DNA of 64,000 nt from NCBI GenBank assembly GCA_963702475.1, contig CAVPCT010000005.1, positions 320,001-384,000 on the forward strand, written 5' to 3'. Below are positions 11,687-52,549 of the stretch, piece by piece. The position numbers and the translations under genes were made by a program. Source of the DNA: an uncultured Thermoleophilia bacterium. Lineage in GTDB: Bacteria; Actinomycetota; Thermoleophilia; UBA2241. The first letter of the stretch is position 1. Every line of letters starts with the position of its first letter. The notes under the pieces were generated by a model that saw nothing but the letters and a program-made list of their open reading frames with translations, did not search any database and was not told the DNA's origin.

Positions 11687-13156
11687 TCAGCCGACGCCGT
11701 GCCGGCGGTCGGCCTCCGCGACGATCGCACGCATCTGCGCGGCGACGTCGGGGTCGACGGGCTCGCACCGGTGTGACTCGAGCAGCTCCAGCGCCCGCTC
11801 GCGGGCGCGCTGCGCCAGGTCGGTCGAGCCCTGCGCCTGCCAGTCGTCGCGCACGCGACGGTCGAGCAGGTCGGAGCGGCTGAGGTCGCGCATGTGGCGC
11901 AGCGTGGAGTCGAGGGAGAGGAAGTCGCCGGACGAGCCGACCGCGGCGATGTCGTCCGCGGCGAGGCTCTCTTCGTCGACGCGGACGCCACCCACGGCCA
12001 TCTTGATCATGTGGGCGATCTCGTCGTCCATGACGAGCTGGCCGAAGTCGAAGGCCACGCCCGACTCGATCATCCCCGCACCGTAGATCTGGTTGGCCCC
12101 TGCCAACGCAGCCAGCAAGCCGGTGAGGGTCTTCTCGTGCCCCGCCTGGGCGTCGCCGAGCTTCGCGTCCGTCTACAACCCCGCCACGAAGCTGGGGAGG
12201 CCGTAGCGCCGCGCCAGCTGCGCGACGGCGGCGCTGATCACGGCGAGCTCGGGCGAGCCGACCGCGGCGGTGGCGAGTCTGAGGTCCATCGCGGTGGTGG
12301 ACGACCCGTAGACCATCGGGCACCCTCGCTCGGTGAGCTGCGCCAGCACGATGCTGCCGAGCACCTCGGCGTTGTGCGTCACCAGCGTGCCCGCCAGCGT
12401 GACCGGCGACGAGCCGCCGGCCATGGCCATGCTGACGACGGTGTTGGACATGCCGGAACGCGCCGCCTCGATGATGACCTCGGTGGCGTCGCGCGGCAGC
12501 TGCAGCGGGCTGACGGGGCACACGCCGAAGCCGACGAGCGGGCGGCGACGCAGCTCGTCCTCGCCGCCCGCGAGCACCCGGGCCATCGCCACGATGGCGC
12601 GCACGTCCTCCGCCGTCGTCGCCTCGCTGCCCACCGGCTTGGTGGTCTCGTGGACGGCCTCCTGCCACTTGTGCAGGCTGGCGGTGGCCGCCGGGACGTC
12701 CTCCGCTCCGACCGCCGACTCGTAGGCGTCCATACTGTCCAGGGCGTCGACCAGACGCGCCACCTCGCGCACGTCCCCGATGCCCGGTTTGCGGTACTCC
12801 CCCGTGCGCGGGTCGACGAGCATGATGCCCTCGTCGAAGTTGGAGAAGTGGACGCTGCCGGCCTCGAGCACCACGTCGTCAGCTGGGTCGCGGCCGCACA
12901 GGTGGACGGCTGGCGGACACGCGGCCACCGCGTCCTCAACGATGTGCGGAGGGATGCGCACCGTGCGCGACCCGCGGTCCACGCGACAGCCTCCGTCGGC
13001 GAAGAGGTCGAGCGGCTCGTCGTCCTCCACGAACAGGCCGGTGCGCTCCAGGACCTCGAGCGTGGCGAGGTGGATGTGGTCGATGTCGGCTTCGCTGAGG
13101 ACGTCGAGCCTCAGACCCGGGCTCCCCGGCCGGCCGGACTGCAGCGGGCGTTTCAC
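11687..13156 (-). CDS. mttB: trimethylamine:corrinoid methyltransferase, pyrrolysine-containing (in-frame TAG 12173-12175)
   Basis: ORF 12173..13324 and ORF 11687..12118 are in frame: SFVAGL-TAG-TDAKLGDAQAGHEKT, matching the MttB Pyl motif; GTG start 13156 after GGGAGG. Confidence 0.9.
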
Positions 13157-13205
13157 GGAGCGCCTCCCTCGTGGTCGGTGGTGGTGAGGTGAGCAGCCGC
13201 GCCGG

Positions 13206-14711
13206 TCACGCGCGCGCCGCCTCGTCGGCGGCGGCCACGAGGCGACGCAGCTCGCGCTGCGCGTCGTCGCCGAGCGGCTCCGGCCGGTAGTGGTCCAAGA
13301 TGTCCCCGGCGCGCTCGCGCGCAACCTCGACGGCGTCGCGGAAGTGGCGCCCGTCGGCGGCGACCTCCTGCGTGATGGCGCGCACCACCGAGGTACGCAT
13401 GTGCCGCCGCGTGTGCACGTGGCCGAGGAAGTTGCCGCCCGGGCCGACCGCGGCGATGGCCTCGAGAGCGAGCGCCTCCTCGTCGGCCGCGACGTCGAGG
13501 AACGCCGCGCGGGCGCGGTGGTAGAGGTCGTCGTCCAGGATCAGGTCCTCGGGCGCGAACACCGTGAAGGTGCCGTGCAGACCGATACCGGTGTAGGTCT
13601 CGCAGCCGTCCAGCGGGAGCTGCAGGAGCTGCGAGGCCTGTTCCACGCCGTGCTGCCAGGTGCCGGGCTCGGTGGCGTCGGTGCCGCCGAAGGCGCCCAG
13701 CGCCGGCAGACCGAAGGCGTGCAGCAGCTCGGTCGCCAGGAAGCGGCAGCGGTCCTCGAGCGGCGCGGACAGCGTGAGCGCGCTCCGCGGGTCGGCGTAG
13801 CTGCTCATGATCGACCCCCACACCGGCGCGCCCGGCGCCGCCAGCTGGTGGAGCACGGCGGCGGCCACGATCTCGGCGGCGCCCACCACCAGGGCGCCGG
13901 CCGGCGTGGCCGGGGCCGTGGTGCCCAGGGTCGGCATGGTCACGTAGCACACGGGGATGCCGGCCTCCGCGAACACCAGTCCGGCGCCGGTGCCGTCGTC
14001 GTCGAGGACGAGCGGCGACACCGTCCCGATGAGGTCGCTGAGCGCTGAGGGAGCGCCGACGCCGCGTGCGTCAGCGACCACAGCGGCCATCTCCACGGCG
14101 CAGCGCGCCAGCGTCTCTCCCTGCACCATGCCCATCAGGTGTTTGGTCGTGTTGTTCCAGCCCGCCTCGAGCTCGTGCACCTGCGCGGCGGGGCCGCAGT
14201 CGCCGGCGCCCACAGTGGGCCACCAGAACGCGATGGACCCGAGGTAGTCCTGCATGCGCGTGACGCCGGCGAGGTCGGCCTTGGTGGACGGGCGCGGCTC
14301 GCCGGTGTGCCGGTCGACGACGTGGGTGCCGCTGCCGTCGGTGGTGCCGTAGGTCTCGCCGGAGGCGAGATCCAGGTCGGTGAGGCCGTCGCGCGAGCCC
14401 AGCACGAAGGTGCGCGGGGCGAGCGCCAGCGACTCCTGGACGAGCCGGCGCGGCAGCCGCACGAGGCCGGAGGCCTCGTCCACGTCCGCGCCGGCCTTCG
14501 CGAACAGCTTGAGGCCCTTGCGCGAGCGGCACTTGACGCCGGTGCCGGCGAGGACGGCGAACGTCGCGTCCAGGTACGGCACCAGCCTCTCCGCGTCGTG
14601 CACCTGCAGGCGGAACTCGGACCGCAGGGGCGCCAGCGGCTGCCTGCGCAGCCGCTGGGCGCCCGGCGCCGTCACGCCCGACGGTCCGGCGTCGGTCGCT
14701 CCGGCGCTCAC
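13206..14711 (-). CDS. MttB-superfamily methyltransferase, non-Pyl
   Basis: MttB-family motifs (P..LV..AL..AP..F.L, G.TAP.T.AG, VGPGGNFL..HT); no amber; start overlaps the upstream mtbB stop (GTGA). Confidence 0.85.
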   Translation of the reverse strand: MSAGATDAGPSGVTAPGAQRLRRQPLAPLRSEFRLQVHDAERLVPYLDATFAVLAGTGVKCRSRKGLKLFAKAGADVDEASGLVRLPRRLVQESLALAPRTFVLGSRDGLTDLDLASGETYGTTDGSGTHVVDRHTGEPRPSTKADLAGVTRMQDYLGSIAFWWPTVGAGDCGPAAQVHELEAGWNNTTKHLMGMVQGETLARCAVEMAAVVADARGVGAPSALSDLIGTVSPLVLDDDGTGAGLVFAEAGIPVCYVTMPTLGTTAPATPAGALVVGAAEIVAAAVLHQLAAPGAPVWGSIMSSYADPRSALTLSAPLEDRCRFLATELLHAFGLPALGAFGGTDATEPGTWQHGVEQASQLLQLPLDGCETYTGIGLHGTFTVFAPEDLILDDDLYHRARAAFLDVAADEEALALEAIAAVGPGGNFLGHVHTRRHMRTSVVRAITQEVAADGRHFRDAVEVARERAGDILDHYRPEPLGDDAQRELRRLVAAADEAARA

Positions 14712-16120
14712 CGCGGCACCGCCCCTCTGCGCGTCCTGACCAGGGAGCTGCGCTCACGGAACCGGTCCACGCAGTTGATGGGCAGGTCGAGAAGGTCGGC
14801 GATGTTCATCTTGGCCTCCATCGCCGTCGCGGCACCCGGGAACGGGGCCTCGGAGTCGATGATCCTGCCGAGGCCCAGCTCGCCGCGGACCTCCTGCATC
14901 GCCACGCAGTCGGAGAGGTCGGCGATGCTCACGCCGAGCCTCTCGGCCACCACACGCTTCGCCTCCGGGAGCCGCAGTCCCCGCGTCATCTGCATGCGCG
15001 CCACCAGGTCTCCGGCGGCGCGTAGCCCGTTCATCCCGCAGGCTGTCGCGTGAGCGCTGGGCATCCCGAAGATGTCGCCTGTACCCACCTACAACCCGTC
15101 CACGCGCAGCAGATCGACGAAGGCGCGCCCCACACGCGACACGGCGTCCACGGGCGGGCAGACGCTCATGGGCACGCCGCCGACCCCCATCCCGGCGTTG
15201 ACGTGCACGGGGATGCTCGCTGCGGCCACGCAGGGCTTGAGGATCGTGGCCGCGCGGGCCACGTTCCAGGCCACGGAGTGCGTGGTGTTGACGTTGACGC
15301 AGGGGCCGAAGATGGTGGCGCCGGCCTGCTCGACCACGCGCAGCTGGTCGTGAGGCCACAGGCCGGCCAGGCGCACGCCGTCGAACTCGAGCCGCCCGTG
15401 CATCCCCAGCACGAACTCGGAGGCCATGCCGACCTCGATGCTCATGGTGGGGAAGTCGCGGCGCAGCGCGCGCACCACCTCGAGCACGGCCAGGAACTCG
15501 GCGTCGCCGGCCGCGCCGCTGGTGTCGAAGTCCAGACCGTCGGCGCCGGCCTCCCAGAGCCTCTCGGCGACGTGGCGCATGTCGGCGGTCGCGTAGGCGA
15601 CCGCCGCCTCCTGCGCCTCACGCGCCTCGTCGGCACGGCCCTGCGGCAACAGCTCGGACCAGTTCGGCACGGGGCCGTCCGGCATCGAGTACCGCCCGAG
15701 GTCGGCCTGCGACCCGTAGTGCAGCGGCATCGTGAGCCGGTGCTGGGCGTCGTGCATGGCCTGGGCCTCGCCGGCGACCACTTTGGCGGCGGCGTTGTAG
15801 CAGTAGTCCTGGTGGAACAGCTCGCCGGAGTCGGCGCCGAGCATCTGCTCGTAGATCACAAGGCCGTCGATGCGCTCGTTCTGCTGCGTGCCGGTGCCGT
15901 CGTAGCTCAGGACGACCTCCTCGCCGATGTCCACGGCCGAGAAGCGCGCGGGAGAGGCGAAGATGTCGAGCAGGTGGTCGAGCTCCGCGGCGTCGAGCGG
16001 CTCGACCTTGGCCCGTTTCGCGCCGAGCGCCGAGCCCTCTTCGAGGTCGGCGCGCAGCTCGGAGCGCGTGAGGTGGACGAGCGCGCCGTCTCCCATCCTC
16101 GTCGGGATCTTCACTTCCAT
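14708..16120 (-). CDS. mtbB: dimethylamine:corrinoid methyltransferase, pyrrolysine-containing (in-frame TAG 15089-15091)
   Basis: TRMGDG N-terminus, GMGVGGVP, RVDGL-TAG-VGTGD, RAAGDLVARMQM, AKMNIA..LD..IN.V; ATG 16120 with RBS. Confidence 0.9.
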
Positions 16121-16206
16121 GAGCGTGCTCTCCCCTCCGGCTGAGCTGCGGGACCGGTCAGCGCACACACAACCCCAGTCCGGCCGCCCGCTCAAGAGCG
16201 GACGCA

Positions 16207-16226
16207 AGGTTTGCCCAAGAATCGGC
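16207..16226 (+). promoter_or_regulatory. conserved 20-bp box AGGTTTGCCCAAGAATCGGC (copy 1), putative regulator site
   Basis: Identical to 18982-19001; both lie 25 nt upstream of a (G/C)ATACT -10 hexamer. Confidence 0.7.
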
Positions 16227-16306
16227 GGTGGCGGCGCGCGATCCAGGCCCGGATACTCCGTCTCAACGACTGTGCCGGCCGCGGCCGGCGGACGAAAGGG
16301 GCGCCC

Positions 16307-17725
16307 GTGGCGCGTGCGCGCATCCAGTACCTGTCGCCTCGGGAGAGCGACTTCATCCACGAGCAGACGCTGGAGCTCCTGGCGCGAGTGGGCGTCGCCT
16401 ACAACTCACCCAGGGCGCTCGACGTGCTGGAGGCAGCCGGCGTGGAGGTCGACCGGGAGAAGCTCACCGCGAAGCTCGGCTGGGAGGTGATCGAAGAGGC
16501 GCTCCGCACCGTGCCCGGACGAGTGCTGCTGGCCGGGCGGCTCCCCGAGCACGACCGCGTGCTCGGCGACGGCCGGCTGGTCACCACGAGTGACGGCATG
16601 ACCACGTACGTGCTGGACGAGCCCGGCGGCGCCCGCCGCGAGGGCACCGCCGCCGACCTGGCCACCGTCACCCGGCTCTGCGACGCGCTCGACGAGATCG
16701 ACGTGGTGTGGCCCTCGCCGCAGGCCGGCGACGTGGACGCCTGGATGATGCCGCTGGTGATGCAGGCGACGGTGGTGCGCAACACCGGCAAGCACGTGCA
16801 GGACGAGGTACGCACCCCGGAGATGGTCGAGCCGATCCTGGCGGTGTACGAGGCGGCCGCGGGCGCGACGCTGCGCGAGCGCCCGGTGTTCTCGGTGACG
16901 AACTGCACGATCGCGCCGCTGCAACACGACCGCGAGATGACGGAGGCCGGCCTGGAGCTTGCGGCACGCGGCGTGCCCATCTTCGTGCTGCCCATGCCCC
17001 AGGCCGGTACGACAGGGCCCATGACCCTGCTCGGCACCTGCATCGTGCACATGGCCGAGCTGCTCTCGGCGGTCGTGCTCTACCAGCTGGCCGTGCCCGG
17101 CTGCCCGCTCATCGCCGGGGTCGGGGCCGCCGTGGCCGACATGCGCAGCGGCGGCTACATCTCGGCGGCGCCCGAGATCGGCCTCATCAACCTGATCTGC
17201 CTCACGATGAGCAAGCGCTACGGGCTGCTCACGCAAGCCACGGGGATCTCGCCCGACGCCAAGGTGAGCGACTTCCAGGCGGGCTCGGAGGGCGGCATGA
17301 CGGGGCTCGTGGCCGCCCTCGCCGGCGCCGACTCGCTCATCGCCGCCGGCAGTCTGGACGGCGTACAGTGCTCGAGCCTCGCCAAGCTGGTGCTGGACGA
17401 CGACCAGCTCGGCGCCATCCGCCGCTACCTGCGCGAGGACCCCATCGACAAGACGGCGGCGCTCATGGACGACATCCTCGAGGTCGGCATCGGCGGCCAC
17501 TTCCTCGCGCGCCGCAGCACCCGCCACGCCGCGCGCACGGAGGTCTGGCGGCCGCGCGTGTTCCAGCGCGGGAGCTACGCCGAGCTGGCCGGTCGGTCGG
17601 TGGTGCAGGCGGCCGCCGAGCGCGCCGAGGAGCTGCTGGCGACGCACGACGCGCCGCCGCTCGCGCCCGCGGCCGAGGCGGCGATCGCCGAGGTACTGGC
17701 GGCCTGGGAGGCGCGCCGGCCCTGA
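16307..17725 (+). CDS. MttB-superfamily methyltransferase, non-Pyl
   Basis: IHEQTLELLARVGV, AGTTGPMTLLG, TGISPDAKVSDFQAGSE (Ser at Pyl position), VGIGGHFL; GTG start after GAAAGGGG. Confidence 0.88.
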   Translation: MARARIQYLSPRESDFIHEQTLELLARVGVAYNSPRALDVLEAAGVEVDREKLTAKLGWEVIEEALRTVPGRVLLAGRLPEHDRVLGDGRLVTTSDGMTTYVLDEPGGARREGTAADLATVTRLCDALDEIDVVWPSPQAGDVDAWMMPLVMQATVVRNTGKHVQDEVRTPEMVEPILAVYEAAAGATLRERPVFSVTNCTIAPLQHDREMTEAGLELAARGVPIFVLPMPQAGTTGPMTLLGTCIVHMAELLSAVVLYQLAVPGCPLIAGVGAAVADMRSGGYISAAPEIGLINLICLTMSKRYGLLTQATGISPDAKVSDFQAGSEGGMTGLVAALAGADSLIAAGSLDGVQCSSLAKLVLDDDQLGAIRRYLREDPIDKTAALMDDILEVGIGGHFLARRSTRHAARTEVWRPRVFQRGSYAELAGRSVVQAAAERAEELLATHDAPPLAPAAEAAIAEVLAAWEARRP

Positions 17726-17815
17726 CCCCGTCAGTGGGCACTGGGCCGTCGGCCGCGGGCGCGGCGCCCGCCCCGGCAGGCGGCCGTTCCTTCGACACGC
17801 CGGCGGGCGCCGCCG

Positions 17816-18898: not shown

Positions 18899-18904
18899 GG
18901 GCGC

Positions 18905-18933
18905 AAGCTAGTCGCAAAGCCGGAGGGGGTCAA
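18905..18933 (-). promoter_or_regulatory. leaderless promoter of the HTH-GAF regulator
   Basis: TTGACC-17bp-TAGCTT ending 6 nt before the ATG. Confidence 0.65.
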
Positions 18934-18981
18934 CAGCGCGACGGCGCGGGCCCCGGCGCCCCGGCCCGACAAGAGCCTGCG

Positions 18982-19001
18982 AGGTTTGCCCAAGAATCGG
19001 C
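18982..19001 (+). promoter_or_regulatory. conserved 20-bp box (copy 2) just upstream of a TTACAC-17-CATACT promoter
   Basis: Identical to 16207-16226. Confidence 0.7.
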
Positions 19002-19072
19002 TCTTACACGCCCCGTGCCCCGTGCGCATACTGCGGCGACGCAGCCGGGGATCACACTGAGGGAGGGTGCAC

Positions 19073-22023: not shown

Positions 22024-22120
22024 GCTGCGGACGGTCGTCCGGGCGCACGAGACGGGTGGCCCACGGGCCACCGGGACGTGCGCCCGGACGACAGCGGCTC
22101 GCTCGCTGGCGCGCGCCGGG

Positions 22121-22516: not shown

Positions 22517-22677
22517 GGTGACGCCTCCGTCACGAGAGTCGTGGACGACCGGCGCCGCTGAGCGGCGCCGGACAGTGGCTGATGACCTCGGTACTCTTCC
22601 CCCCGAGCCAGGGATTCAGGCCCGAGGCCGGCAGGCCCGGCCCGGCAGGCGAGGCGGGCGGGCCGGGACCGGCGACG

Positions 22678-24079: not shown

Positions 24080-24083
24080 CGGA

Positions 24084-27763: not shown

Positions 27764-27787
27764 GCCGGCCTCGACCGGCCGGAGTGA

Positions 27788-29072: not shown

Positions 29073-29075
29073 TGA

Positions 29076-38188: not shown

Positions 38189-38229
38189 CCGCGGGCCGGG
38201 CGTGAGGATGAAGCCGGCGAGGTGCTCCC

Positions 38230-38291: not shown

Positions 38292-38323
38292 CGCACCGCT
38301 CGGGGCGGTGACTGGAGGTGCCA

Positions 38324-39712
38324 ATGGCTCGTCGCATCCCCACAAGACTCGGGGACGGCTCGCTCGTCGCGCTCACCGCCGCCGAGATCGAGGCGGACCT
38401 TGTCTCCGGCTGTGAGGCGGCGGTGAAGCGCGCCAAGGTGGAGCCGCTCACCGACGACGACCTCGCCCACCTGCTCGACATCTTCACGTCACCCGCCAAG
38501 TTCAGCGCCGTGGACTACGGCGACGAGGTCGTCCTGAGCTTCGACGGGTCGGGCAACTCTGACCTCAACGCGCCGATCCTCGAGCAACTCGTCTACCAGA
38601 ACCACCACGGCGCCGACATGATCGAGCTTTGGCATCAGGACTACTCGTACAAAGCCGTGCGCACCGTGCTCTCCTTCCAGACGCAGACGGTCAAGGAGGC
38701 ACAGCTCCAGACGGTGATCCCGCTGAACTACGGGGCCATGCCGGACCTGGGCCGCTACTCGATGCCCGACGGCCCGGCCCCCAACTGGTCGGAGCTGCTG
38801 CCGCTCGGCAGGTACGAGGAGGCCCGCGAGGCCCAACTCGAGGCCGTGAAACACCTCGAGAAGGACATGTGGTACGTGATCGAGGCCATGGTGGCCGCGG
38901 GCGTGGACGGCATCGATTTCGACACGGCGGGAGCGGCCGGGGACGCCGACCTGCTGGCCACGCTGCGCACCGCGCGCAAGGTGCGCGACACGTGGCCGCA
39001 CATCGGCGTGGAGATCGGCCAGGCCTCCGAGCTGGTGCTCGGCATGCACGGGCAGCTCGAGTACGAGGGCACCAGGCTGGCCGGCCAGTGGCCCCTCGGC
39101 CAGCTGCGCGCGTGCACCGCAGCCGGCGCCACCATCTTCGGGCCGGCCGTGAACGTGAACACCACCAGGTCGTTGCCGTGGAACACGGCCCGCGCCTGCG
39201 CGCTCATCAAGCCCGTCACCGCCGAGGCCACCATCCCCGTGCACGCCAACGCGGGGATGGGCGTCGGCGGCGTCCCCATGACGCCGTACCCGCCGGTCGA
39301 CGCCACGTCCCGGGCGTCCCGCGCCCTCGTCGACATCTGCAAGGTCGACGGGTTGTAGGTCGGGATCGGGGACCCCGTGGGGATGGCCTCGACACACGCG
39401 CTCGCCTCGGGCATGGGCGGCATGCGGACCGCCGGAGATCTGGTGGCCCGCATGCAGATGACCCGGGGCATGCGTCTCCCGCAGGCCAAGCAGTACGTGG
39501 CGGAGAAGCTCGGCTGCTCCGTGGACGACCTCAACGACACCGTGGTCATGCACGACATCCGCCGCGACCTCGGCCTCGGCCGTATCCAGGTGCAGGACCT
39601 CACCTACGCCGACCACCCGGGAGCGATGGAGGCGAAGTTCCGTATCGCCGAGGTGCTGGACATCCCCATCAACTCGGTCCAGCGCTTCAAGGCGCACGCC
39701 GGGCTGGCGTGA
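38324..39712 (+). CDS. mtbB: dimethylamine:corrinoid methyltransferase, pyrrolysine-containing (in-frame TAG 39356-39358)
   Basis: [42 protein letters not shown]; GGAGG RBS. Confidence 0.92.
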
Positions 39713-39782
39713 CGGCGGCGGCGACGCAATGACGGCTGCGGCGAGGTCACCTCGCGACGGTGAGCCGGGACGGAGGACACGC

Positions 39783-41251
39783 ATGACTTCACAGCTGGAC
39801 CTGACGCAGCGCCAGCCGCTGCTGCCGCTGGGCTCCGACTTCCGCGTGCAGTTCTACGGTGCGGCGAAGCTGGACCGTTACAAGGAGGCCGTCCTGACGG
39901 TGCTGGAGCGGACCGGCGTCAGGTTCGGGTCGGCCAAGGCCCTCGCCGTCCTGGATGCGCACGGCGCCCGCGTCGACCGCGCGTCCGGCGTCGTCCGTCT
40001 CCAGCCCGACCTCGTCGAGCGAGCCCTCGGCACCGCCCCGCGCTCGCTCTGGCTGGGGTCGCGGGACGGCACGCTCGACCTCGATCTGGCGTCAGGCGAC
40101 ACCTACAACACCACCAACGGGTGCGGTACTGAGGTCGTCGACTGGCGCACCGCCGAGCGGCGGCCGCCGACCAAGGACGACCTCTGCGCCATCACGCGCA
40201 TGATCGACTACCTGGGCTCGGTCCAGTTCTGGTGGCCCAACGTGGCCGCCGCGGACAAGGGCGACACCCACACCCTGCACGAGCTGGACGCCGCCTGGAA
40301 CAACACGGCCAAGCACCTGCAGGGCATGGTGCAGGGCGAGCGCGAGGCGCGGTACGCCGTGGAGATGGCGACCGTCGTCGCCGGAGGGGCGGAGCAGCTG
40401 CGCCGCCGCCCCCCGATGAGCAACCTCATCGGCACCGTCCAGCCACTCATCAACGACAAGGACGGCATCGAGGCGGCCCTGGTGTTCGCCGAGGCCGGTG
40501 TGCCCGTGTGCTTCGTCACGATGCCGACCTACGGGACGACGGCGCCGGCCACCAAGGCAGGCGCCTACGTCATGGGGTTCGCGGAGCTCATCAGCGCCGC
40601 GGTCTGCGTGCAGCTGGCGCACCCGGGGGCGCCGGTCATCCTCTTCCCCCTCCCCGTGCACGCCGACCCGCGCACGGCCGCGCTGACCACCGCCCCGCTC
40701 AACCACCGCGGCCTCTTCTTGCCCGGCGAGCTCGTGCACCACTTCGGGCTGCCGGCCATGACCGGGTACGCAGGCACCGACGACGACCTGCCGGGCAGCT
40801 GGCTGGCGGCGGCCGAGACGGCGCACACCGTGATGCTGGCCGGCATCGTCGGCTCCGAGCTCATGACCACCATCGGCCTCACCAACCGCTACCAGCTGTT
40901 CACGCCCGAGCACATGATGCTCGACGACGACCTCTACCGGCGGGCGGCCAGCGCCTTCCGCGACCTCGAGCTCGACGACGAGACGCTGGCGCTGGACGTG
41001 ATCGACGCCGTGGGCCCCGGCGGGCACTTCCTGGGCCAGGCGCACACCCGCCGGCACATGAAGGAGACCGTCGAGCGCTCGATCGGCCAGGAGATCGGCC
41101 CCGACGGCACGCACCTGCGCGACGCCGTCGAGGTCGCGCGCGAGCGCGGCCTCGATATCCTCGAGCACTACGTACCGGAGCCGCTCGACGAAGCGAAAGC
41201 GGTGGAACTGGGCGCATCGTGGCGGCGGCCGACGCCGAGCTGCTCAGCTGA
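39783..41251 (+). CDS. MttB-superfamily methyltransferase, non-Pyl (frameshift near 41211)
   Basis: Close paralog of 13206..14711; C-terminus RIVAAADAELLS lies in another frame. Confidence 0.85.
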
Positions 41252-41925
41252 GCATGGCCGGCCGCGGCCGGCGCCCCGTCCCAGGCGCCCGTGTCCTCGG
41301 CGCCGGCGTCCTGCACGCTGCTCTTCACACAGTCGAGCACGAGGGCGCGCCACAGCTCGAATGCCGGGGTCAGGTCGAGGTCGGGGTCGGCGATGGCCTG
41401 TAGCGCGAGTCCGTCGGTCATGGCGACCGTCAGCACGGCCAGCGGTTCGCTCCTGGCCTGACGCGGACGCCCGTCGCTCCCCTCGTCCAGGGCCCACGTG
41501 TCCAGGCGCCTGTACCACTCGAAGAGCTGGCGCAGGTGCGGCTGGAGCTGCTCGTCGCGCAGGACATGGGGGATCAGCTCGTAGAACATCTGGTACGAGT
41601 CGCGGTCGGACGACATGCTTTCGTGGATGCTCAGGAGCGTCTGGCGACGCTCCTCCCCCGCCGGTACGGCGGTGAGCTTCTCGATGAGCTCCACGGCCTC
41701 CTGGTACAGCACGGAGTCCACAAGCGCGGTGAGCAACCCGGCCTTGCTGCCGAAGTGGTAGCGGATGAGCGCAGGGTTCTCGCCGGCCTCTCTCGCGATC
41801 GTCTCGAACGTGAGAGCACGGAAACCGTCCCGATACAGCACGCGCTTCGCCGCGTCGAGAATGCGCAGGGCGGTCGGCGACAGGTCCGGCGTCGGGTCGT
41901 CGATGGGCAGCTCGTATCTCGCCAT
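41168..41925 (-). CDS. TetR/AcrR family regulator (3' end uncertain)
   Basis: RILDAAKRVLYRDGFRALTFETIAREAGENPALIRYHFGSKAGLL HTH; restoring the 41211 indel gives a stop at 41168. Confidence 0.85.
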
Positions 41926-42079
41926 ACTCCCTCTCCCCCACTACGTTGCGGCTTCGAGCCGGGTCGGCGGCGCTCCCCTGAAGGGGACGCCGGGACGGGA
42001 CGGAAGATACCCTCAGCCGACCCGGCCGGACAAGGTCCGCCGCCCGGTCACCAACCCGGCCCGGCCCGGGAGCTCTTCC

Positions 42080-42137
42080 TTGACAGCCTCACGTCCTCTG
42101 CTAGTGTATCGCACATCTTAGTTATGTAACTAACTAA
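42080..42137 (+). promoter_or_regulatory. promoter TTGACA-16-(TG)TAGTGT with palindromic operator TTAGTTA-N6-TAACTAA (42118-42137)
   Basis: Second copy of the operator, divergent from the TetR gene. Confidence 0.8.
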
Positions 42138-42167
42138 TCTCCTTCACCCAGGCGACAGGGGGAACGC

Positions 42168-43573
42168 TTGAGCAGCAAGGTACGCACCCGTCTCGGCGAC
42201 GGGTCGCTCGTCGAGATGACGCCCGGGGAGATCCGCGCCGACCTCGAGGCCGGCACCGAGCTCGGGGCCAGGCGGTCCAAGGCGCCGCAACTCACCTCCG
42301 CCGAGCTCGACCAGCTGCAGGACATCTTCACCACCGAGGCCAAGTTCAGCGCCGTCGACATGGGCGACGAGGTCGTCCTCAGCTTCGACGGCTCAGGCAA
42401 TCTGGACTCGGGCACACGTGTCGACGAGCTCTACAGCTACCAGTGCCACCGCGGCGCCGACATGCTGGAGCTCTTCGGCATCGACTACTCGTACAAGGCC
42501 GTGAAGACCATCCTGAGCTACGAAGCGCAGGCGATGAAGACGGCCCAGCTCAACCTCATCGCGCCGCTGCAGTACGGCGCGATGCCGGACCTCGGCCGGT
42601 ACTCGATGCCGGACGGCCCGATCCCCAACTGGTCCGAGCTCATGCCCAGGGCCGCATCCCGGAGGCGCGCGACGCGCAGGTGGCGGCCATCGAGCTGGCC
42701 GTCGCCGACATGATCTTCTGCGCCGAGGGCATGTGGGAGGCCGGCGCGGACGGCCTGGACTTCGACACGGCCGGGGCCGCCGGCGACGGGGACTTCCTGG
42801 CGGCCCTCACCGCCATCGAGGCCATCAAGGGCCGCTACCCGGACTGCGGCATCGAGCTCGGCATGGCCAGTGAGTACGTGCTGGGCATGCACGGCGAGCT
42901 CGAGTACAAGGGCCGGCGTCTGGCCGGCATGTGGCCGGTCGAGCAGGTCAAGGTCGCACAGGAGGCCGGCGCCACCATGTTCGGGCCGGCTGTCAACGTG
43001 AACACCACGAGGAGCGTGGCCTGGAACGTGGCCCGCGCCTGCACGATCATCAAGCCCTGCATGGAGGTCGCCGAGATCCCCGTGCACCCCAACGTGGGCA
43101 TGGGCGTCGGCGGCGTACCCATGAGCCCCTACCCCCCGGCCGACGCCGTCTCGCGCGTCTCGCGCGCCCTCGTCGACATCCTGCAGCTGCGACGGGTTGT
43201 AGGTCGGCGTGGGTGACCCTCTGGGCATGGCGTGCACGCACGCGCTGGCCTCGGGCATGGGAGGGATGCGGGCCGCCGGAGACCTGGTGGGCCGCATGCA
43301 GATGACCCGGGGCATGCGTCTCGAGGACGCCAAGACCTACGTGGCCGGCAAGCTCGGCTGTGCCGTCGCGGACCTGGCCGACCCCATCGCCATGCACGAC
43401 GTGCGCCGCGACCTCGGCCTGGGCCGCATCACGGTGCAGGAGCTCACCTACCCACGCACGCCGGCGCGATGGAAGCCAAGTTCCGCATCGCCGACGTGCT
43501 GGACGTGCCCATCAACAGCGTGACGCGCTTCGCCGAGAACGCGAAGCTGACGACGACAGGAGGACGGGTGTGA
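42168..43573 (+). CDS. mtbB: dimethylamine:corrinoid methyltransferase, pyrrolysine-containing (TAG 43200-43202; frameshifts near 42650, 43189, 43455)
   Basis: Four ORF pieces assemble into a full MtbB with DGL-TAG-VGVGDPLGM. Confidence 0.82.
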
Positions 43574-45051
43574 AACGGAACCTGCAGGTCGGAGGCGGCC
43601 GCAGCCGGGGGCTCAGCTTCTCCGTGTTCACCGAGACGGAGCTCGACCAGATCCACTACGCGACGCTCGAGGTCCTGGAGCGCACCGGCATCTTCGTCGA
43701 GGACGACGAGGCGCTGGACATCTTCAAGGACGGCGGCTGCCGGGTCGACCGCGAGCACCGGGTGGTGCGCATCCCGCCGCACGTGGTGGAGGACGCGATC
43801 CGCAGCGCCCCGAGCAAGTACGTGCTCTGCGGGCGCGACCCGAAGAACGACTTCCTCATGGAGCCGGGGCGCGTGGCGTTCACCAACTTCAGCGAGGGCA
43901 TCGCCGTGATCGACCTCGAGAGCGGCGAGCACCGCAACTGCACCCTGGAGGACGTAGCGACGATCGCGCGCCTCAACGACTACCTCCCGAGTTCGACACG
44001 CACGAGATCGCCGTGGGCGCCCGCGACGTGCCGCCGCAGACGGCGGCGGTGCACAACACCGAGGCCCAGCTGCACAACACCACCAAGCCGATCGGCATCG
44101 GCCCGCTCTCCGGCCTGGAGTGCCGCGCGATCCTGCAGATGTGCGCCGCGGTCGTGGGTGGCGAGGACGAACTGCGCGAGCGCCCGATCGTGTACGGCGG
44201 CGTGTGCCCGGTGAGCCCGCTCAAGCTGCCGCGCGACGCCACCGAGGTCATCATCGAGTGCTCGCGCTGGTGGATCCCCGACAACGTGCTAGAGCATGGC
44301 CATGTCGGGCGGGTCCAGCCCGGTCACCCTTTCCGGCACGCTCGTGGTGCACAACGCCGAGGTGCTCAGCGGCATCGTGCTGGCGCAGCTCACCGAGCGC
44401 GGCTGCCCGGTGATGTACGGCTCGTCCACCACGGCCATGGACCTCAAGCTCGCGGCGGCCTCCGTCGGCTCGCCCGAGATCTGCCTGATCAGCGCCGCGG
44501 TGGCGGAGCTGGCGCGGCGCTACCAGATCCCGAGCTTCGTGGCCGGGTTGTAGGCGGACGGCAAGGTCGGTGACGAGCAGGTCGGTCACGAGAAGACCCT
44601 CACCGGACTCACGGCAGCGTTGGCAGGGGCCAACCTGATCTACGGTGCGGGGATGATCGAGTCGGGCGTCACCTTCGATTGCGCGCAGTTCGTCATCGAC
44701 AACGAGATCGCGCGCATGATCCGGCGGGTCGCCGAAGGCATCCGCGTGGACGACGAGAGCCTCGCCGTGGACGACATCCACAGCGTGGGGCCGTTCGGCG
44801 ACTTCCTCTCGCTGGACTCCACCTACCGCCACATGCGCGACCTGACCCAGCCGGAGATCCTGGACCGGCGCACCCGCGAGGAGTGGCAGGCGAGCGGGTC
44901 CCGCGACCTGTATTCCGAGGCGGTCATCAAGGCCCGCGGCATCGTCGAGGAGCACCGGCCGGAGCCGCTGCCCGACGACGTGGCCGCGCGGATCCGCGCC
45001 ATCGTCGAAGAGACTGACCGCGTCGCCGGCGCCACCGCCGGCGTCGCCTGA
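43570..45051 (+). CDS. mttB: trimethylamine:corrinoid methyltransferase, pyrrolysine-containing (TAG 44551-44553; frameshifts near 43985, 44290)
   Basis: [24 protein letters not shown]; close paralog of 11687..13156; GTGA coupling to mtbB. Confidence 0.85.
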
Positions 45052-45062
45052 GGAGGGGAAAG

Positions 45063-46663: not shown

Positions 46664-48103
46664 GCGTGATCGAGCGGTCGACGACAGCCGATCGCGCCGA
46701 TCCGCTCGGACTTCGCCGTCCGCTTCCACGACGACGCGGCCATCGCGCCGCTGCACGATGCCACCCTGCGGCTGCTCGAAACGACCGGCATGCGCTTCGA
46801 GTCGCCCAGAGGCCGCTCGCGATCCTGAAGAAGGCCGGCGCCCACGCGGACGAGGGCTCTTCCCTCGTCCGCCTGCCCGCCGGCTGGTCGAAGAAGCGCT
46901 CGCGCAGGCGCCGCGGCAGTTCACGCTCGGCGCCCGCGACCCTTCCTGCGACCTGCAGGCCGGCTCCGGCTGGACCTACGGCACCACCGACGGCTGCGGC
47001 GTGGAGGTCGTCGACTGGCACACCGGCGAGCGGCGGGCGTCGACCAAGGCCGACCTCGAGGCCGTCACGCGCATGCAGGACTGCCTCGGCTCCATCAGCT
47101 ACTGGTGGCCCACCGTGAGTGCCGGCGACTGCGGCGAGACGGCCCAGATCCACGAGATCGAGGCCGGCTGGAACAACACGAGCAAGCACCTCATGGGCAT
47201 GGTGCAGGGCGAGCGGCTCGCCCGGGCGGCCGTGGAGATGGCGGCCGCGGTGGCCGGCGGGCTAGAAGGACTCCGCCGCCGGCCCGTCATGAGCAACCTC
47301 ATCGGCACAGTCTCGCCCCTCATCCACGACAAAGACGGGCTGGAGGCCGGCCTGGTCTTCGCCGAGGCCGGCGTGCCGGTCTGCTACGTGACCATGCCCA
47401 ACCTGGGCACGACGGCCCCGGCCACCAAGGCCGGCGCTTTCGTGCTCGGCGCGGCCGAGATCGTCGGCGCGGCGGTGCTCCACGAGCTCGCCGCGCCCGG
47501 CAGCCCTGTGCTCGGCTCGATCATGCAGATCTACGCCGATCCGCGCACTGCGCTGACGATGACGACGCCGCTCGACGACCGCTGCCGCTTCCTGGCCACG
47601 CGCTGCTGCACAGCTTCGGCCTGCCTGCGCTCGGCCCGTTCGGAGGCACCGACGCGGAGCTTCCCGGCACCTGGCTCGCGGGAGTCGAGACCATGCTGCA
47701 ACTGGCTCAGCTGCCCCTGGACGGGTGCGAGCTGTACACCGGCATCGGCCTCACCAACACCTATCAGCTCTTCAAGATGGACATCTACCACCGCGCACGG
47801 CACGCCTTCCTCGACATCCCTGTGAACGACGAAGAGCTGGCCCTCGACGTGATCGACACGGTCGGTCCCGGTGGGCACTTTCTCGCGCAGCCGCACACGC
47901 GCAGGCACATGCGCGACGCGGTCCTGCGCGCCGTCAGCCAGGAGATCGCGGCCGACGGCCAGCACTACCGCGACCCAGTGGAGGTGGCCCGCGAGCGCGC
48001 CCTCGACATCCTGGAGGACTACCAGCCGGAACCGCTCGCGGAGGAGGTTCGCGCCGAGCTGCGCCGGATAGTCGACGAGGTGGACGCGGCCGTGAAGGCC
48101 TGA
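46660..48103 (+). CDS. MttB-superfamily methyltransferase, non-Pyl (several frameshifts; possible pseudogene)
   Basis: Paralog of 13206 and 39783 genes: GTTDGCG..VVDW, WWPTV, WNNTSKHLMGMVQGE, VGPGGHFL. Confidence 0.78.
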
Positions 48104-48119
48104 CGGCAGCTGCGCGGCG

Positions 48120-48929
48120 TCAGTCCAACAGCATGCGGTCGACGGCGAACGCCTCGCCGGCGACCTCGTGGAACTTCTGGATGAGGTCGCTCACCTGCAG
48201 GCAGCACTTCTGGTCCTGAGGCAGGTCGAGGACGATCCTGCCGGCGTGCATCATGATGAGCCGGTCGCCGTAGCGCAGCGCCAGCTCCATGTTGTGTGTG
48301 ACCATCAGCGTCGTGAGGCCGCGCTCCTGCACGATGGCGTCGGTGAGCTCCATGATGGTGGCCGCCACCTTCGGGTCGAGCGCGGCCGTGTGCTCGTCGA
48401 GCAGCAGCAGGCTCGGCTCGGCCACCGTGGCCATGAGCAGCGACATCGCCTGGCGCTGCCCGCCCGAGAGCTTGTTGACGTGCGTCTTGAGACGGTGCTC
48501 CAGGCCCATGTCCAGGCGCGAGAGCTGGCTGCGCATCACCTCGCGCCGCTTGTTGGTCACACCCCGGCCCAGCCCGCTGCGTTTCTGGCGCAGCAGCGAG
48601 AGCGCCAGGTTCTCCTCGATGGTCATGTCGGGCGCGGTGCCGGCGCGAGGGTCCTGGAACACACGCCCGATCACGCGGCTGCGCACGTGCTCGCGCTGCC
48701 TCGTGACGTCAACGCCGCCGAGCCGTACCGCGCCGGCCGTCACGGCGAAGGTGCCGGCCACCGCGTTGAGCAGCGTGGACTTGCCGGAGCCGTTGGAGCC
48801 GATGATGCTCACGAACTGGCCCGCCGGCACGTCGAGATCGATGCCGGTCAGAGCCACCACTTCATTGGCCGTGCCGGGGTAGAAGACCTTGCGCAACCCG
48901 CCGAGGGTGAGCGGGGCCGGGGCGCTCAT
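48120..48929 (-). CDS. ABC ATP-binding protein (putative Trp/Tyr-type uptake system)
   Basis: GSNGSGKST, VFQDP..GTAP, LSGGQRQA, LLLDEHTAALDP. Confidence 0.92.
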   Translation of the reverse strand: MSAPAPLTLGGLRKVFYPGTANEVVALTGIDLDVPAGQFVSIIGSNGSGKSTLLNAVAGTFAVTAGAVRLGGVDVTRQREHVRSRVIGRVFQDPRAGTAPDMTIEENLALSLLRQKRSGLGRGVTNKRREVMRSQLSRLDMGLEHRLKTHVNKLSGGQRQAMSLLMATVAEPSLLLLDEHTAALDPKVAATIMELTDAIVQERGLTTLMVTHNMELALRYGDRLIMMHAGRIVLDLPQDQKCCLQVSDLIQKFHEVAGEAFAVDRMLLD

Positions 48930-49825
48930 GAGCGCACCACCTTCTTGCGGATGGTGGGCACCGACAGCGCCACCACGACGAGCACGGCCGTGAGCAGCTT
49001 GAGGTCGGTCGGGGCGATGCCGAAGCGCAGGCTCACAGCGATGAGCAGGCGGTAGACGATGGAGCCGCCGATGACGCTGAACAGCACCCAGCTGACGCTG
49101 CGCTCGCCGAAGATGACCTCGCCCATGATGACGCCGGCGAGGCCGGCGACGATGGTGCCGATGCCCATGCCCACGTCGGCGAACCCCTGCTGCTGCGCGA
49201 CCAGCGCGCCGGTGAGCGCGACGAGCGCGTTGGCGATGCCCAGGCCGATGATGCGCGTCAGCTGGGTGTTGGTGCCCATGGCGCGGATCATCTGCTCGTT
49301 GTCGCCGGTGGCCTGCAGCGTGAGCCCGAACTCGGTGTGCAGGAACCAGTCGAGCAGGTACTTGACGACGAGGGCGATGGCCGCCAGCGCGAGGATCAGG
49401 TTCCACGACACCATGGTGGCGGAGAGGAAGTCCCCGATCTTCTCGAACACGCCGTCCACGCCGAGCAGCGGGATGTTGCTGCGGCCCATGATACGAAGGT
49501 TGATGGTGTAGAGCGCGGTCATGGTGAGGATGCCGGCGAGCAGCTTGGGCCCGTAGTTGGTGTCGGAGCCGCCGGACTTGAGGAGCATGTGGAGCAGGCC
49601 GGTCACGCACCCGGCGCAGAGCCCGGCGGCCACCCCTGCGGCGGTCGCCGCGAAGGGTGAGGCGCCGTTGGTGATGAACATGGCCGTGACCGCCGCTCCC
49701 AGCGGCAGGCTGCCGTCCACGGTGAGGTCAGGGAAGTCGAGCACGCGGAACGTGATGAACACACCGAGGACCATGAAGCAGTACAGCAGGCCCTGTTCGA
49801 GCGCGCTGGTGACGATCACTTCCAC
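48926..49825 (-). CDS. ABC permease (putative Trp/Tyr-type)
   Basis: FRVLDFPDLTVDGSLPLG and QQGFADVGMGIG motifs. Confidence 0.92.
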   Translation of the reverse strand: MEVIVTSALEQGLLYCFMVLGVFITFRVLDFPDLTVDGSLPLGAAVTAMFITNGASPFAATAAGVAAGLCAGCVTGLLHMLLKSGGSDTNYGPKLLAGILTMTALYTINLRIMGRSNIPLLGVDGVFEKIGDFLSATMVSWNLILALAAIALVVKYLLDWFLHTEFGLTLQATGDNEQMIRAMGTNTQLTRIIGLGIANALVALTGALVAQQQGFADVGMGIGTIVAGLAGVIMGEVIFGERSVSWVLFSVIGGSIVYRLLIAVSLRFGIAPTDLKLLTAVLVVVALSVPTIRKKVVRS

Positions 49826-49844
49826 GTGCGCTGTCTCCTCGTGT

Positions 49845-49880
49845 CCGGGGCCGGGGCCGCAGGCGCGGCCCCGGCCCCGG
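49845..49880 (-). terminator. intercistronic 16-bp hairpin between SBP and permease genes
   Basis: CCGGGGCCGGGGCCGC-AGGC-GCGGCCCCGGCCCCGG. Confidence 0.6.
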
Positions 49881-49960
49881 GAAGTCTACGCGGCCGCAGC
49901 GGGTGCGGCCAACCGTGGCTCGGCGACGGGTCCCCTGCCGTGCACGGCCTCTTCCGTCGC

Positions 49961-50979
49961 TCAGTACTTGTTGACGGCCTGGTCGATGAGCTCCTGCGGG
50001 ATGGTGACGCCCTGCGCCTTGGCGGCCTTCTCGTTGATGGAGAGCTGCAGGTTCTCAGCGAACACGACGGGGATGTCGGAGATCGGCGTGCCTCTGAGGA
50101 CCTTGGCGGCCAATGTCGCCCGCCTGCTTGCCGTGATCGTAGTAGTCGAATCCGTAGGCCGGCGACGGCGCCGCGCTTGACGCTGTCCGGATCGCCGGCG
50201 ACGAGCGGCATCTGGTTCTGCTCGGCCACCTTGACGATGGCCTCGAGGGCCGAGACGGCGGTGTTGTCGCCGACGACCATGATGGCGTCTGCGCGGCCGA
50301 TCAGCGACTGCGCCGCGGCTTGAACCTCGGCCGAGGTGCCGGCCGGCGCCTTGACGATGGTGAGGCCCATGGTGGCGGCGTCCTTCTCGGCCTGCTCGAC
50401 GAGGAACACCGAGTTGGACTCGCCGGCGTTGTAGACCATGCCCACGGCTTTCGCGTCGGGACGGAAGGCCTTGACGAGCTCGAGGATGGGCTCGGTCGGC
50501 TGCATGTCGCTGGCGCCGGTTACGTTGGCCGAGGGGGCGTCAGGATCGTGCACCAGGCCAGCGCCCACGGGATCAGTGACGGCGGTGAACAGGACCGGCG
50601 AGTCGGTGACCGCCTTGGCGAGCGCCTGGGCCGTGGGCGTGCCGACACCCAGGACCAGGTCGAGGTCGTCTCCGGCGAACTTCTGCGCGATGCTGGCCGT
50701 GGTGGCCATGTCACCCTCGGCGTTCTGCAGGTCGAAGGTGATGTTGGTGAAGCCGGCCTCAGCGAGCGCGTCCTGGAAGCCTTGAACGGTGGCGTCGAGC
50801 GCAGGGTGCGTCGCGATCTGGCTGATGCCGATGGTGTACGCCTGGCTGGTGGCGTCGGCGCTCGCACTGGGACTTGCGGACGAGGTCTCCTCCGTGGTCT
50901 CGCCGCAGCCGGCCACGAGCGCGGCAGCGATGAGGACCACGAGGACCAGGGCCGCGGCCGTCTTGAGGGCGCGGGACAT
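49961..50979 (-). CDS. ABC substrate-binding lipoprotein (ABC_sub_bind, TrpX-like; frameshifts near 50115-50160)
   Basis: LVAGC lipobox, HPALD, FTAVTDPVGAGL, YNAGESNS; true C-terminus LSINEKAAKAQGVTIPQELIDQAVNKY in another frame. Confidence 0.85.
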
Positions 50980-51145
50980 TGTTCTCCTTTCGGATGCGAG
51001 ACGAGTGGAGCATTCTAGTTCTCACTACCGAGAGGTTACAAGCACCCGATGCGCGAGCGCGACGGGAATAGCGTACGCGCGCCGGGCGGGGAACCGCTCC
51101 CGCAGGCGCCCCGCCCGGCCGTCAACGTTCGCACACGCGTCGTCG

Positions 51146-52549
51146 TCAGACCGGCGCGCGACCCTTGAGTCCCGCGCGCTCCTTGAACAGCTCCACGCAG
51201 TTGATGGGGATGTCGAGCGTGCGCGCGATGTTGAACTTGGCCTCCATCATCCCGGCCTCTGACGGGTGTGCCGTAGAGGTCATGGCGATCACGCCCAGGC
51301 CCTTGTCGCGGCGGATGGTCTCCATCGCCACGGGGTCGCTGAGGTCACGCGTCGAACAGCCGAGCTTGCCGGCCACGTACTGCTTGGCTTCCTTGAGTCG
51401 CATGCGCCTGGTCATCTGCATGCGGGCCACCAGGTCTCCGGCTGCCCGCATCCCGCCCATGCCGGACGCTTGCGTGTGGGCCGACTCCATCCCGAGGGGG
51501 TCGCCCGTACCCGCCTAGAACCCGTCGATCTTGAGGATCTCGACGAACGCCTTGCTCGCCCGGCTCGTGGCGTCGGCCGGCGGATACACGCAGTTCGGCA
51601 CCCCGCCGACGCCCATGCCGCAGTTGACGTGCACGGGGATCTCGGCGATCTCCGCGGCCGGCTTGATGAAGGTGATGGCGCGGGCGATGTTCCACGCCGT
51701 CGACTTGCCGGAGTTGATGTTGACGGCCGGCCCGTACACGCTGGCGCCGGCCTGCTGCACCATGCGCAGCTGGTCCCTGGGCCACATGCCGGCCAGGCGG
51801 TCGCCGTCGAAGGTGAGCTTGCCGTGCATGCCCAGCACGAACTCGCTGGCCATGCCGATCTCGATGCCCAGCCACGGGTACTGTTCCCGGAGCCTGCGGC
51901 AAGCGGTGAGGGCGGCCAGGAAGTCGGCGTCGCCGGCCGCTCCGGTGGTGTCCATATCGATGCCGTCGGTGCCGGCCGCCACCATGTGGTCGGCGACGTA
52001 GCCGATGTCGTCGATCAGCATCGCCATGGCGGCTTGCTGCGCGTCGCGGGCCTCGTCGATCCTGTTGAGCGGAAGGAGCTCCGACCAGTTGGGGATGGGC
52101 CCGTCAGGACGTGAGTAGCGCCCCAGGTCCGGCATGGCGCCGTACTGGATGGGGTTGGTGAGCAGGCTCTGGGCGATCTTCATGCCCTGCCCCTCGTGGG
52201 CGACGTTCACCTTGATCGCCTTGTACGAGTAGTCGATCTGCCAGAGCTCGACCATGTCCACGCCGATGAGCGTCTCGTAGCTCTGCAGGTCCTGCACGCG
52301 ATTGCCGATGTGCTTGGTCCCGGTGCCGTCGTTGCTCATCACCACTTCGTCGCCGATGTCCACTGCGGTGAACCGCGCCGGCGAGGCGTAGATGTCGAGC
52401 AGATGCTCGAGCTCGTCCTGCGTGAGCGTCGGCACCTTGGCCCGTTTGGCCGCGAGCTGCGTGCCGTCCTCGAGATCGGTCTTGATCTCCGAACGGGTCA
52501 TCTCGACCAGCGACCCATCCCCCATGCGGGTGGGGATCCTGGGTTCCAC
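51146..52549 (-). CDS. mtbB: dimethylamine:corrinoid methyltransferase, pyrrolysine-containing (in-frame TAG 51515-51517)
   Basis: [42 protein letters not shown]; GTG start 52549 after GGAGG. Confidence 0.92.

Follow-up and report, generated by a model that had tools for sequence, protein, structure and literature searches.

Predicted pyrrolysine codons in a 64-kb window share a 5' codon context

The window, by which we mean the whole 64-kb stretch of DNA analyzed here (70% GC), is part of the 4.3-Mb genome (9 contigs) of a Thermoleophilia-like actinobacterium with both a pyrrolysine (Pyl) cassette and release factor 1 (RF1). The window contains six matches to GGGTTSTAG compared to 0.18 expected, and 0/100 shuffles reached six. 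These matches map to 12173-12181 (−), 15089-15097 (−), 39350-39358 (+), 43194-43202 (+), 44545-44553 (+), and 51515-51523 (−). When TAG is translated as an amino acid, two of the sites are located in MttB (PF06253) and four in MtbB (PF09505) reading frames, and the six TAGs are predicted to be Pyl codons of methylamine methyltransferase genes. An earlier note on this DNA had described five GGG TTG TAG sites and one GGG TTC TAG site in two different enzyme families; all six were found, and Pfam matches support the assignment to the MttB and MtbB families. Pfam was run on five of the six frames and gave 317.6 bits for MttB, 534.8, 526.6, and 547 bits for MtbB, and 196.3 bits for the C-terminal part of a split MttB. 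The genes and their Pyl codons are as follows:

11687..13324, minus strand: Pyl-type trimethylamine methyltransferase MttB; longest open reading frame (ORF); PF06253, 317.6 bits, residues 71-537
12173-12175, minus strand: Pyl codon TAG of the 11687..13324 MttB gene, preceded by GGG TTG at 12176-12181
14708..16360, minus strand: Pyl-type dimethylamine methyltransferase MtbB; PF09505, 534.8 bits
15089-15091, minus strand: Pyl codon TAG of the 14708..16360 MtbB gene, preceded by GGG TTG
38318..39712, plus strand: Pyl-type MtbB; PF09505, 526.6 bits; Pyl TAG at 39356-39358 after GGG TTG
42168..43523, plus strand: broken MtbB copy with frameshifts and stops; GGG TTG TAG retained at 43194-43202
43561..45051, plus strand: MttB copy split over three frames; intact C-terminal frame at 44296-45051; GGG TTG TAG at 44545-44553
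51146..52687, minus strand: Pyl-type MtbB; 547 bits; Pyl TAG at 51515-51517 after GGG TTC (Phe)

The earlier note took all six to lie in recoded genes. The sites are real, but two of the six copies (42168-43523, MtbB; 43561-45051, MttB) are broken.

UAG is both a stop codon and a predicted Pyl codon in the host

The host genome contains pylD (profile match of 209 bits, over the cut-off) with a tRNA-Pyl(CUA) gene directly 3' of it. We assigned the Pyl machinery based on these two genes. RF1 is encoded by prfA (477 bits, over the curated cut-off). Using a gene-calling heuristic based on the GC content of third codon positions (GC3), we obtained 2266 long GC3-supported ORFs, of which 1867 end with TGA, 343 with TAG, and 56 with TAA. 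TAG is a genuine stop in about 15% of the host genes and, given the presence of pylD, tRNA-Pyl(CUA), and RF1, UAG therefore has a truly ambiguous meaning in the host. Three TAGs at 1007 (−), 9868 (+), and 62728 (−) had been proposed as true stops with other upstream hexamers; the hexamers are there, but only the TAG at 1007 ends a GC3-accepted ORF.

The host genome also has a tRNA-Sec (UCA) gene at C3:167171-167268. Because of this gene, the host probably also recodes UGA as selenocysteine.

TTG is the preferred Leu codon before Pyl codons throughout the host genome

In the 2266 long ORFs, Gly is encoded by GGC in 67.5% and by GGG in 18.2% of cases, while CTC and CTG together account for 93% of the Leu codons and TTG for 3.05%; codon usage in the Pyl genes themselves matches this pattern, as the earlier note had proposed. 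The preference at the window sites goes beyond chance: all five Leu codons before the Pyl codons are TTG (5/5), which has a P value of 2.6e-8 if the sites are independent and, corrected for paralogy by counting only the two families as independent, of 9e-4.

Genome-wide, we identified 26 Pyl-TAGs, 15 in MttB, 10 in MtbB, and 1 in MtmB genes. In the 25 MttB and MtbB frames, a single in-frame TAG is present at the conserved Pyl column, with the coding sequence running on beyond it, and the frames end with TGA (22), TAA (2), or TAG (1). Leu precedes 17 of the 26 Pyl-TAGs and is encoded by TTG in 16 cases and CTG in 1; the remaining nine −1 codons are GCG (3), CAG (2), TAC (2), ATG, and TTC. The lone Pyl MtmB (PF05369, 658.6 bits), which is unrelated to MttB and MtbB, also reads GGG TTG TAG. 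We note that the methylamine methyltransferases have expanded greatly in this genome, with about 70 matches to the MttB superfamily, of which 15 have a Pyl codon, next to the 10 Pyl-containing MtbB genes and to 5 homologs of MtmB, of which 1 has a Pyl codon.

Because the genes are paralogs, descent had been considered as a partial explanation for the shared context. For TTG, we reject this explanation, since other conserved Leu columns in the 15 MttB and 10 MtbB paralogs (28 and 23 columns, respectively) are mixtures of CTC and CTG. The sole TTG-rich columns are the −1 column and an MttB column 24 alignment columns downstream, which is explained by a hairpin described below. Similarly, in MttB paralogs without the TAG, the aligned Leu codon is CTC or CTG. 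Pairs of paralogs share the codon at same-residue positions at a frequency of 0.60-0.62, compared to 0.52-0.55 expected from codon usage, and synonymous sites are therefore nearly randomized.

The TTG bias is specific to Pyl-TAG and is absent before TAC and true TAG stops. Of 1858 Leu codons that precede Tyr TAC in the genome, 3.4% are TTG. Setting aside the 25 MttB and MtbB sites, 323 ORFs end with TAG, and the Leu codons before these TAGs are CTG (17), CTC (6), CTT (1), and TTG (4). One of these four TTG-TAG ends is the MtmB Pyl site, and the other three belong to ORFs that translate as antisense-like low-complexity sequence. These three ORFs were considered as additional Pyl genes flagged by TTG-TAG and rejected, as they look non-coding. 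A genome scan for read-through candidates mostly gave antisense frames or adjacent genes and was not used.

The window also contains three MttB-superfamily paralogs without a TAG, and a MerR/GAF regulator as well as amino-acid permeases are among the neighbors of the methyltransferase genes:

13206..14711, minus strand: MttB-superfamily paralog without TAG
16211-17725, plus strand: MttB-superfamily paralog without TAG
39729-41675, plus strand: MttB-superfamily paralog without TAG

UUG or UUA precedes Pyl codons in several bacterial phyla

A search for PylD homologs listed 120 of 428 matches, each from a close relative with at least 66% identity. To reach distant Pyl users, we therefore searched one genome for each prokaryote species with a codon-blind DNA pattern in which the −1 codon was free, Val was fixed at +1, and the frame had to match G-x-G-D-x-x-G-M. 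Close PylD relatives as well as matches to the pattern bear Thermoleophilia or Actinomycetota labels. The wide scan identified at least 117 loci with at least 125 MtbB Pyl sites; MttB and MtmB genes were collected from these loci and, for MtmB, by a search of 50 of the genomes behind them. Counts from this survey, here and below, are among the matches listed.

MtbB matches are present in each of the 24 genomes sampled from the host genus (24/24), and each listed match has the in-frame TAG. In 31 MtbB rows from relatives, the −1 codon is TTG (28), TTA (2), or ATG (1), with the two TTA rows coming from a second genus with 62% GC. Beyond Thermoleophilia and Actinomycetota, TTG or TTA at −1 was found in sequences labeled as Desulfobacterales and other Deltaproteobacteria, Desulfohalobiaceae, Thermodesulfovibrionales, several Bacillota families, Spirochaetes, and the Olavius Delta 1 symbiont. 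The earlier note had suggested a survey of other high-GC bacteria. In the bacteria scanned here, UUG or UUA (UUR) before Pyl-TAG extends to several phyla, and the observation is much more general than a single window.

Among 99 full-length MtbB genes, the −1 column contains 67 TTG, 8 TTA, 3 CTC, and 2 CTG codons, while 21 other conserved Leu columns contain 1-18% TTR. Of 171 conserved MtbB columns, the −1 column ranks first for synonymous deviation (67 TTG compared to 7.9 expected). Leu before the Pyl-TAG is always TTG or TTA in MttB (20/20) and MtmB (8/8). When the 254 distinct sites are pooled, the Leu codons at −1 are TTG (142), TTA (17), CTC (5), and CTG (3), while codon usage in the same genes predicts 13.0, 5.2, 68.0, and 63.9, respectively; TTG and TTA thus make up 159 of 167 Leu codons at −1 but 3-24% elsewhere in the same genes. 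Mapped onto the MtbB tree, other Leu columns show 8-11 changes from TTR to CTN or back, while the five CTN cases at −1 are scattered tips. We considered codon rarity as the driver of the bias and rejected it: in genes with <60% GC, where TTR makes up 24% of the other Leu codons and is not rare, 38 of 41 Leu codons at −1 are TTR, and the bias is equally strong.

According to these comparisons, the codon that precedes the recoded stop is under a synonymous constraint that goes beyond paralogy and generic bias. At the level of codon conservation, they show that purifying selection on the synonymous site maintains UUG or UUA as the −1 Leu codon of Pyl-UAG, in the host as well as across bacteria and in three unrelated families of Pyl enzymes.

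Archaeal-labeled MtbB and MtmB sequences have Ile or Val at −1 (AUA, AUU, or GUN); these are the sequences at loci L041, L044, L057, L059, L085, L112, L114, L129, and L156 and at the MtmB loci. In 16 of 21 archaeal-labeled Ile sites, the codon is the rare ATA compared to 4.0 expected, even in genes with ≥60% GC, which hints at a separate archaeal 5' context preference. Five gut "cleanbin" records (L081, L099, L100, L118, and L130), labeled as Eggerthellaceae, Prevotella, Acutalibacteraceae, Firmicutes, and Faecalibacterium, carry mtbB contexts of the archaeal type and are likely mis-binned archaeal contigs. In the "Eggerthellaceae" bin, which has GTA at −1, we found no match to RF1 or release factor 2 (RF2), and this bin may be archaeal or incomplete.

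GGG at position −2 is a weak part of the context

The earlier note also suggested that GGG and TTG together are selected at the RNA level. Selection holds for TTG, but GGG as a fixed part of a signal is poorly supported: of 325 Gly codons that precede TTG in the genome, 38.8% are GGG, and codon-pair bias of the ordinary kind therefore largely accounts for the GGG in the motif. At the 25 MttB and MtbB sites of the host, the −2 codon is GGG (14), GGC (7), or GGT (4), and GGG is present in 11 of the 16 TTG sites (P = 0.015). In the wide set, the 242 Gly codons at −2 comprise 97 GGG, 71 GGC, 54 GGT, and 20 GGA compared to 39, 126.5, 34, and 42 expected, respectively. Based on these data, GGG at −2 is a weak part of the motif.

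Related deviations are present at neighboring positions in the pooled sites. Ala at −1 is encoded by GCG in 20 of 21 cases (7.7 expected) and Gly at −1 by GGG in 6 of 9, while Val at +1 is encoded by GTC in 28 cases compared to 71 expected. GGG at −2, G or A at nucleotide −1, and a non-C third base in the +1 codon may be weaker parts of the same C-poor context.

Covarying hairpins are located downstream of Pyl codons in mtbB and mttB

A scan of synonymous sites flagged GGA-GAT-CTG at codons +26 to +28 of mtbB and GCG-TTG-GCA at alignment columns +23 to +25 of mttB, corresponding to codons +22 to +24 in most sequences. Both segments are part of hairpins. The mtbB hairpin, CCGCCGG-AGAY-CUGGUGG, spans nucleotides +74..+91 and often has three additional outer pairs. 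Among 131 sequences, 93.9% of cells pair compared to ≤54% in slid controls, and 51 cells have changed on both sides compared to 14.5 in shuffles (0/500 reach this number); for the extended helix, there are 93 double changes compared to 32.1. Compensatory changes are present at three synonymous-site pairs. The mttB hairpin, G-YUGGC-AGGN-GCCAR-C, is located at +69..+84 from the UAG; 89.3% of cells pair, and there are 9 double changes compared to 2.0 in shuffles (0/500). The pairing explains the rare TTG and GCA at +22/+23 of mttB, and the U-A pair is replaced by C-G in five paralogs. All seven matches to GTTGGC-N4-GCCAAC in the genome (7/7) lie in Pyl-mttB genes at the same offset. The six hairpin copies in the window have folding energies of −12.5 to −21.5 kcal/mol:

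12092..12107, minus strand: mttB hairpin G-UUGGC-AGGG-GCCAA-C, 69-84 nt 3' of the UAG; 12088-12111 folds at −12.5 kcal/mol, z −2.8
14997..15022, minus strand: mtbB hairpin CGC.GCCGCCGG-AGAC-CUGGUGGC.GCG, 3' of the UAG; −21.5 kcal/mol, z −5.1
39425..39450, plus strand: mtbB hairpin with an AGAU loop; −15.1 kcal/mol, z −3.3
43269-43294, plus strand: mtbB hairpin in the broken copy
44619-44634, plus strand: mttB hairpin in the split copy
51423-51448, minus strand: mtbB hairpin of the 51146..52687 gene

Both hairpins are missing from most archaeal-labeled sequences. They are not of the type of the pyrrolysine insertion sequence (PYLIS), as they begin 69-74 nt 3' of the UAG, and they are too distant from the A site to contact a ribosome waiting at the UAG. 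Using RNAalifold on the region from −18 to +120 of 99 MtbB and 55 MttB sequences, we observed no PYLIS-type stem-loop beside the UAG. According to a review, nothing PYLIS-like is visible in mtbB (PMC2933860).

We also noticed that mtmB genes of both domains have a small candidate hairpin, CAGCUC-AAY-GAGCUG, which encodes Q-L-N-E-L and is located about +91..+105 after the UAG; it was seen by eye in single-sequence folds (loci L157-L175 and L005). The frameshifted copies at 42168-43523 (MtbB) and 43561-45051 (MttB) adjoin, and both retain GGG TTG TAG and the downstream hairpin, which points to recent decay or assembly errors.

Possible functions of UUR before Pyl codons

We infer that UUR before UAG has a role in decoding. 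The most likely point of action would be the ribosome that has UUR in its P site and UAG in its A site. Either the tRNA-Leu(UUR) in the P site or the U at nucleotide −3 would then favor Pyl-tRNA(CUA) as it competes with RF1 for the A site, and the outcome would be a local 5' codon-context element that gives more read-through at sites in need. A read-through function of UUR is plausible. That UUR is both a selected mark and a local 5' codon context raising Pyl read-through where needed has, in our estimate, slightly less than an even chance of being correct.

Several observations weigh against this reading. Pyl insertion also works at a UAG that has been put into a foreign sequence and, according to two reviews, a sequence cue is not essential (PMC12626013, PMC2933860); any effect of UUR would therefore be modulatory and not obligatory. 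At many MttB sites, the −1 residue is not Leu but Ala, Gly, Gln, Tyr, or Met, and Leu-UUR is therefore not required. Moreover, 8 of the 167 Leu sites use CTC or CTG. Loss of RF1 was considered as the reason for these exceptions and rejected, since prfA is over the cut-off in 6/6 such genomes tested. In the host, the base before ordinary TAG stops is depleted for C (67 compared to 134 expected) and enriched for G, while the base before TGA is not, and a G before TAG is therefore not specific to Pyl. Generic biases account for part of the C-poor context, and much of the effect at nucleotide −1 is a generic TAG effect. Finally, the sites share ancestry and most of the sequences come from metagenome bins, some with doubtful labels, so that raw P values overstate the case; the column rank within an alignment and the counts on the tree control for relatedness better.

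Among the alternatives, selection could act on frame keeping. Here, UUR would limit slipping or hopping of peptidyl-tRNA-Leu to nearby CUN-like triplets during slow decoding of UAG; the UUR tRNA would re-pair less easily, giving fewer frameshifts and hops and not less RF1 action. Hopping of a Leu tRNA over a stop codon is a classical observation, and the selection described here depends on UAG as the next codon and is not seen with TAC. A longer dwell time of ribosomes at UAG in Methanosarcina, as described in the available part of PMC13663744, also fits. However, in genes with <60% GC, where TTR makes up 24% of Leu codons and landing sites are not rare, the −1 codon is still TTR in 38/41 cases, and the GCG (20/21 Ala) and GGG codons preferred at −1 are abundant triplets in GC-rich mRNA. 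We consider frame keeping to be unlikely. RNA pairing is another alternative: the U at nucleotide −3 would be kept for pairing, as is the TTG 22 codons downstream in mttB. Hairpins do shape codon choice in Pyl genes, with TTG and GCA at +22/+23 of mttB explained by a hairpin with a U-A to C-G exchange, but RNAalifold gave no consensus helix involving the UAG region (−18..+120) for 99 MtbB or 55 MttB sequences, and the same UUR is found in three families with unrelated flanks. A search for a pairing partner of nucleotide −3 over −60..+110 codons, which had low power with its five CTN exceptions, gave no compensating column. Taken together, we regard pairing of this nucleotide as quite improbable.

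A rare Leu codon can also control gene expression through the tRNA supply, as TTA does with bldA in Streptomyces, where it acts at any position in a gene. UUR before the Pyl codon would likewise be a rare Leu codon with a regulatory meaning in a high-GC actinobacterium, and synthesis of the Pyl enzymes would depend on tRNA-Leu(CAA/UAA) or its modification. UUG is rare in the genome (3%), and tRNA-Leu CAA and tRNA-Leu UAA have one gene each. In contrast to TTA/bldA, however, UUR is fixed exactly at −1 beside the UAG, other TTG codons occur in the same genes, and the bias persists in low-GC bacteria in which UUR is common, which makes gating by tRNA supply very unlikely. The last alternative invokes no selection at all but inheritance from a common, possibly low-GC, ancestor or a neighbor bias such as avoidance of CTAG or codon-pair bias. 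The genes are indeed paralogs and orthologs, and the 38.8% GGG before TTG and the depletion of C before ordinary TAG stops account for a large part of the preference for GGG and for G before TAG. Yet, the codons in other Leu columns are scrambled, the frequency at which paralogs share a codon exceeds expectation by just 0.08, CTG-TAG contains no CTAG and still occurs only 3 times compared to 63.9 expected, TTG before TAC is at 3.4%, and three non-homologous families are concordant. For TTG, this alternative is largely refuted, and we give it hardly any credence.

Comparison to known recoding signals and significance

Similar to PYLIS, a stem-loop 3' of the UAG in archaeal mtmB, UUR before UAG is a cis feature of a Pyl gene, and PYLIS is thought to aid translation of UAG or lower termination. 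Unlike PYLIS, the bacterial feature is a single 5' codon choice and is found in all three families, while archaeal-labeled records have AUA, AUU, or GUN at −1. PYLIS is described as helpful but not essential in the accessible text of PMC2933860 and PMC12626013. The selenocysteine insertion sequence (SECIS) and SelB similarly flag which in-frame stops, here UGA, become an amino acid; SECIS, however, is a hairpin that is strictly required and is recognized by an elongation factor of its own, while UUR involves no structure and is not universal. For Pyl, no dedicated elongation factor is known according to the available portion of PMC12626013.

On E. coli ribosomes, codons 5' of the stop and a purine after it alter UAG read-through, as reported in the part of PMC10415131 that is available, and all Pyl sites analyzed here have a purine after the UAG. 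In the same text, GGC lowers read-through from the E site, and GGC is depleted at −2 here (71 compared to 126.5). The VVN library used in that work does not include UUG, though, its GGU result does not match the enrichment of GGT here (54 compared to 34), and the accessible text reports no natural, evolutionarily conserved 5' codon at Pyl sites.

How sense and stop UAGs are discriminated in bacteria that use both has been a question since about 2005. In a 2007 study, bacterial Pyl genes were examined for a cis element, and no RNA structure shared by them was found (PMC1976440). According to a 2025 paper, there is still no organism for which a mechanism of targeted Pyl insertion is known (PMC12626013). 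In the available text of the open literature (PMC13663744, PMC3639795, PMC12626013, PMC8318568, PMC1976440, PMC2933860, PMC11441406, PMC10415131), subscription journals and supplements aside, we found no description of a 5' codon preference at Pyl sites or of the bacterial hairpins. TTG before bacterial Pyl codons is a strong selected feature that was apparently not described before.

UUR before UAG is simple and strongly conserved. If it raises read-through, it would offer a cheap improvement of Pyl-based amber suppression in bacteria and allow better prediction of Pyl genes in genomes and metagenomes. A broader proposal, which we see as possible though doubtful, is that bacteria with RF1 mark their Pyl UAGs by a two-part signature that is absent from archaeal genes, in which UUR in a C-poor stretch and a covarying hairpin 70-95 nt downstream would jointly raise Pyl insertion. 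If correct, this signature would represent the bacterial equivalent, long sought after, of a Pyl insertion signal.

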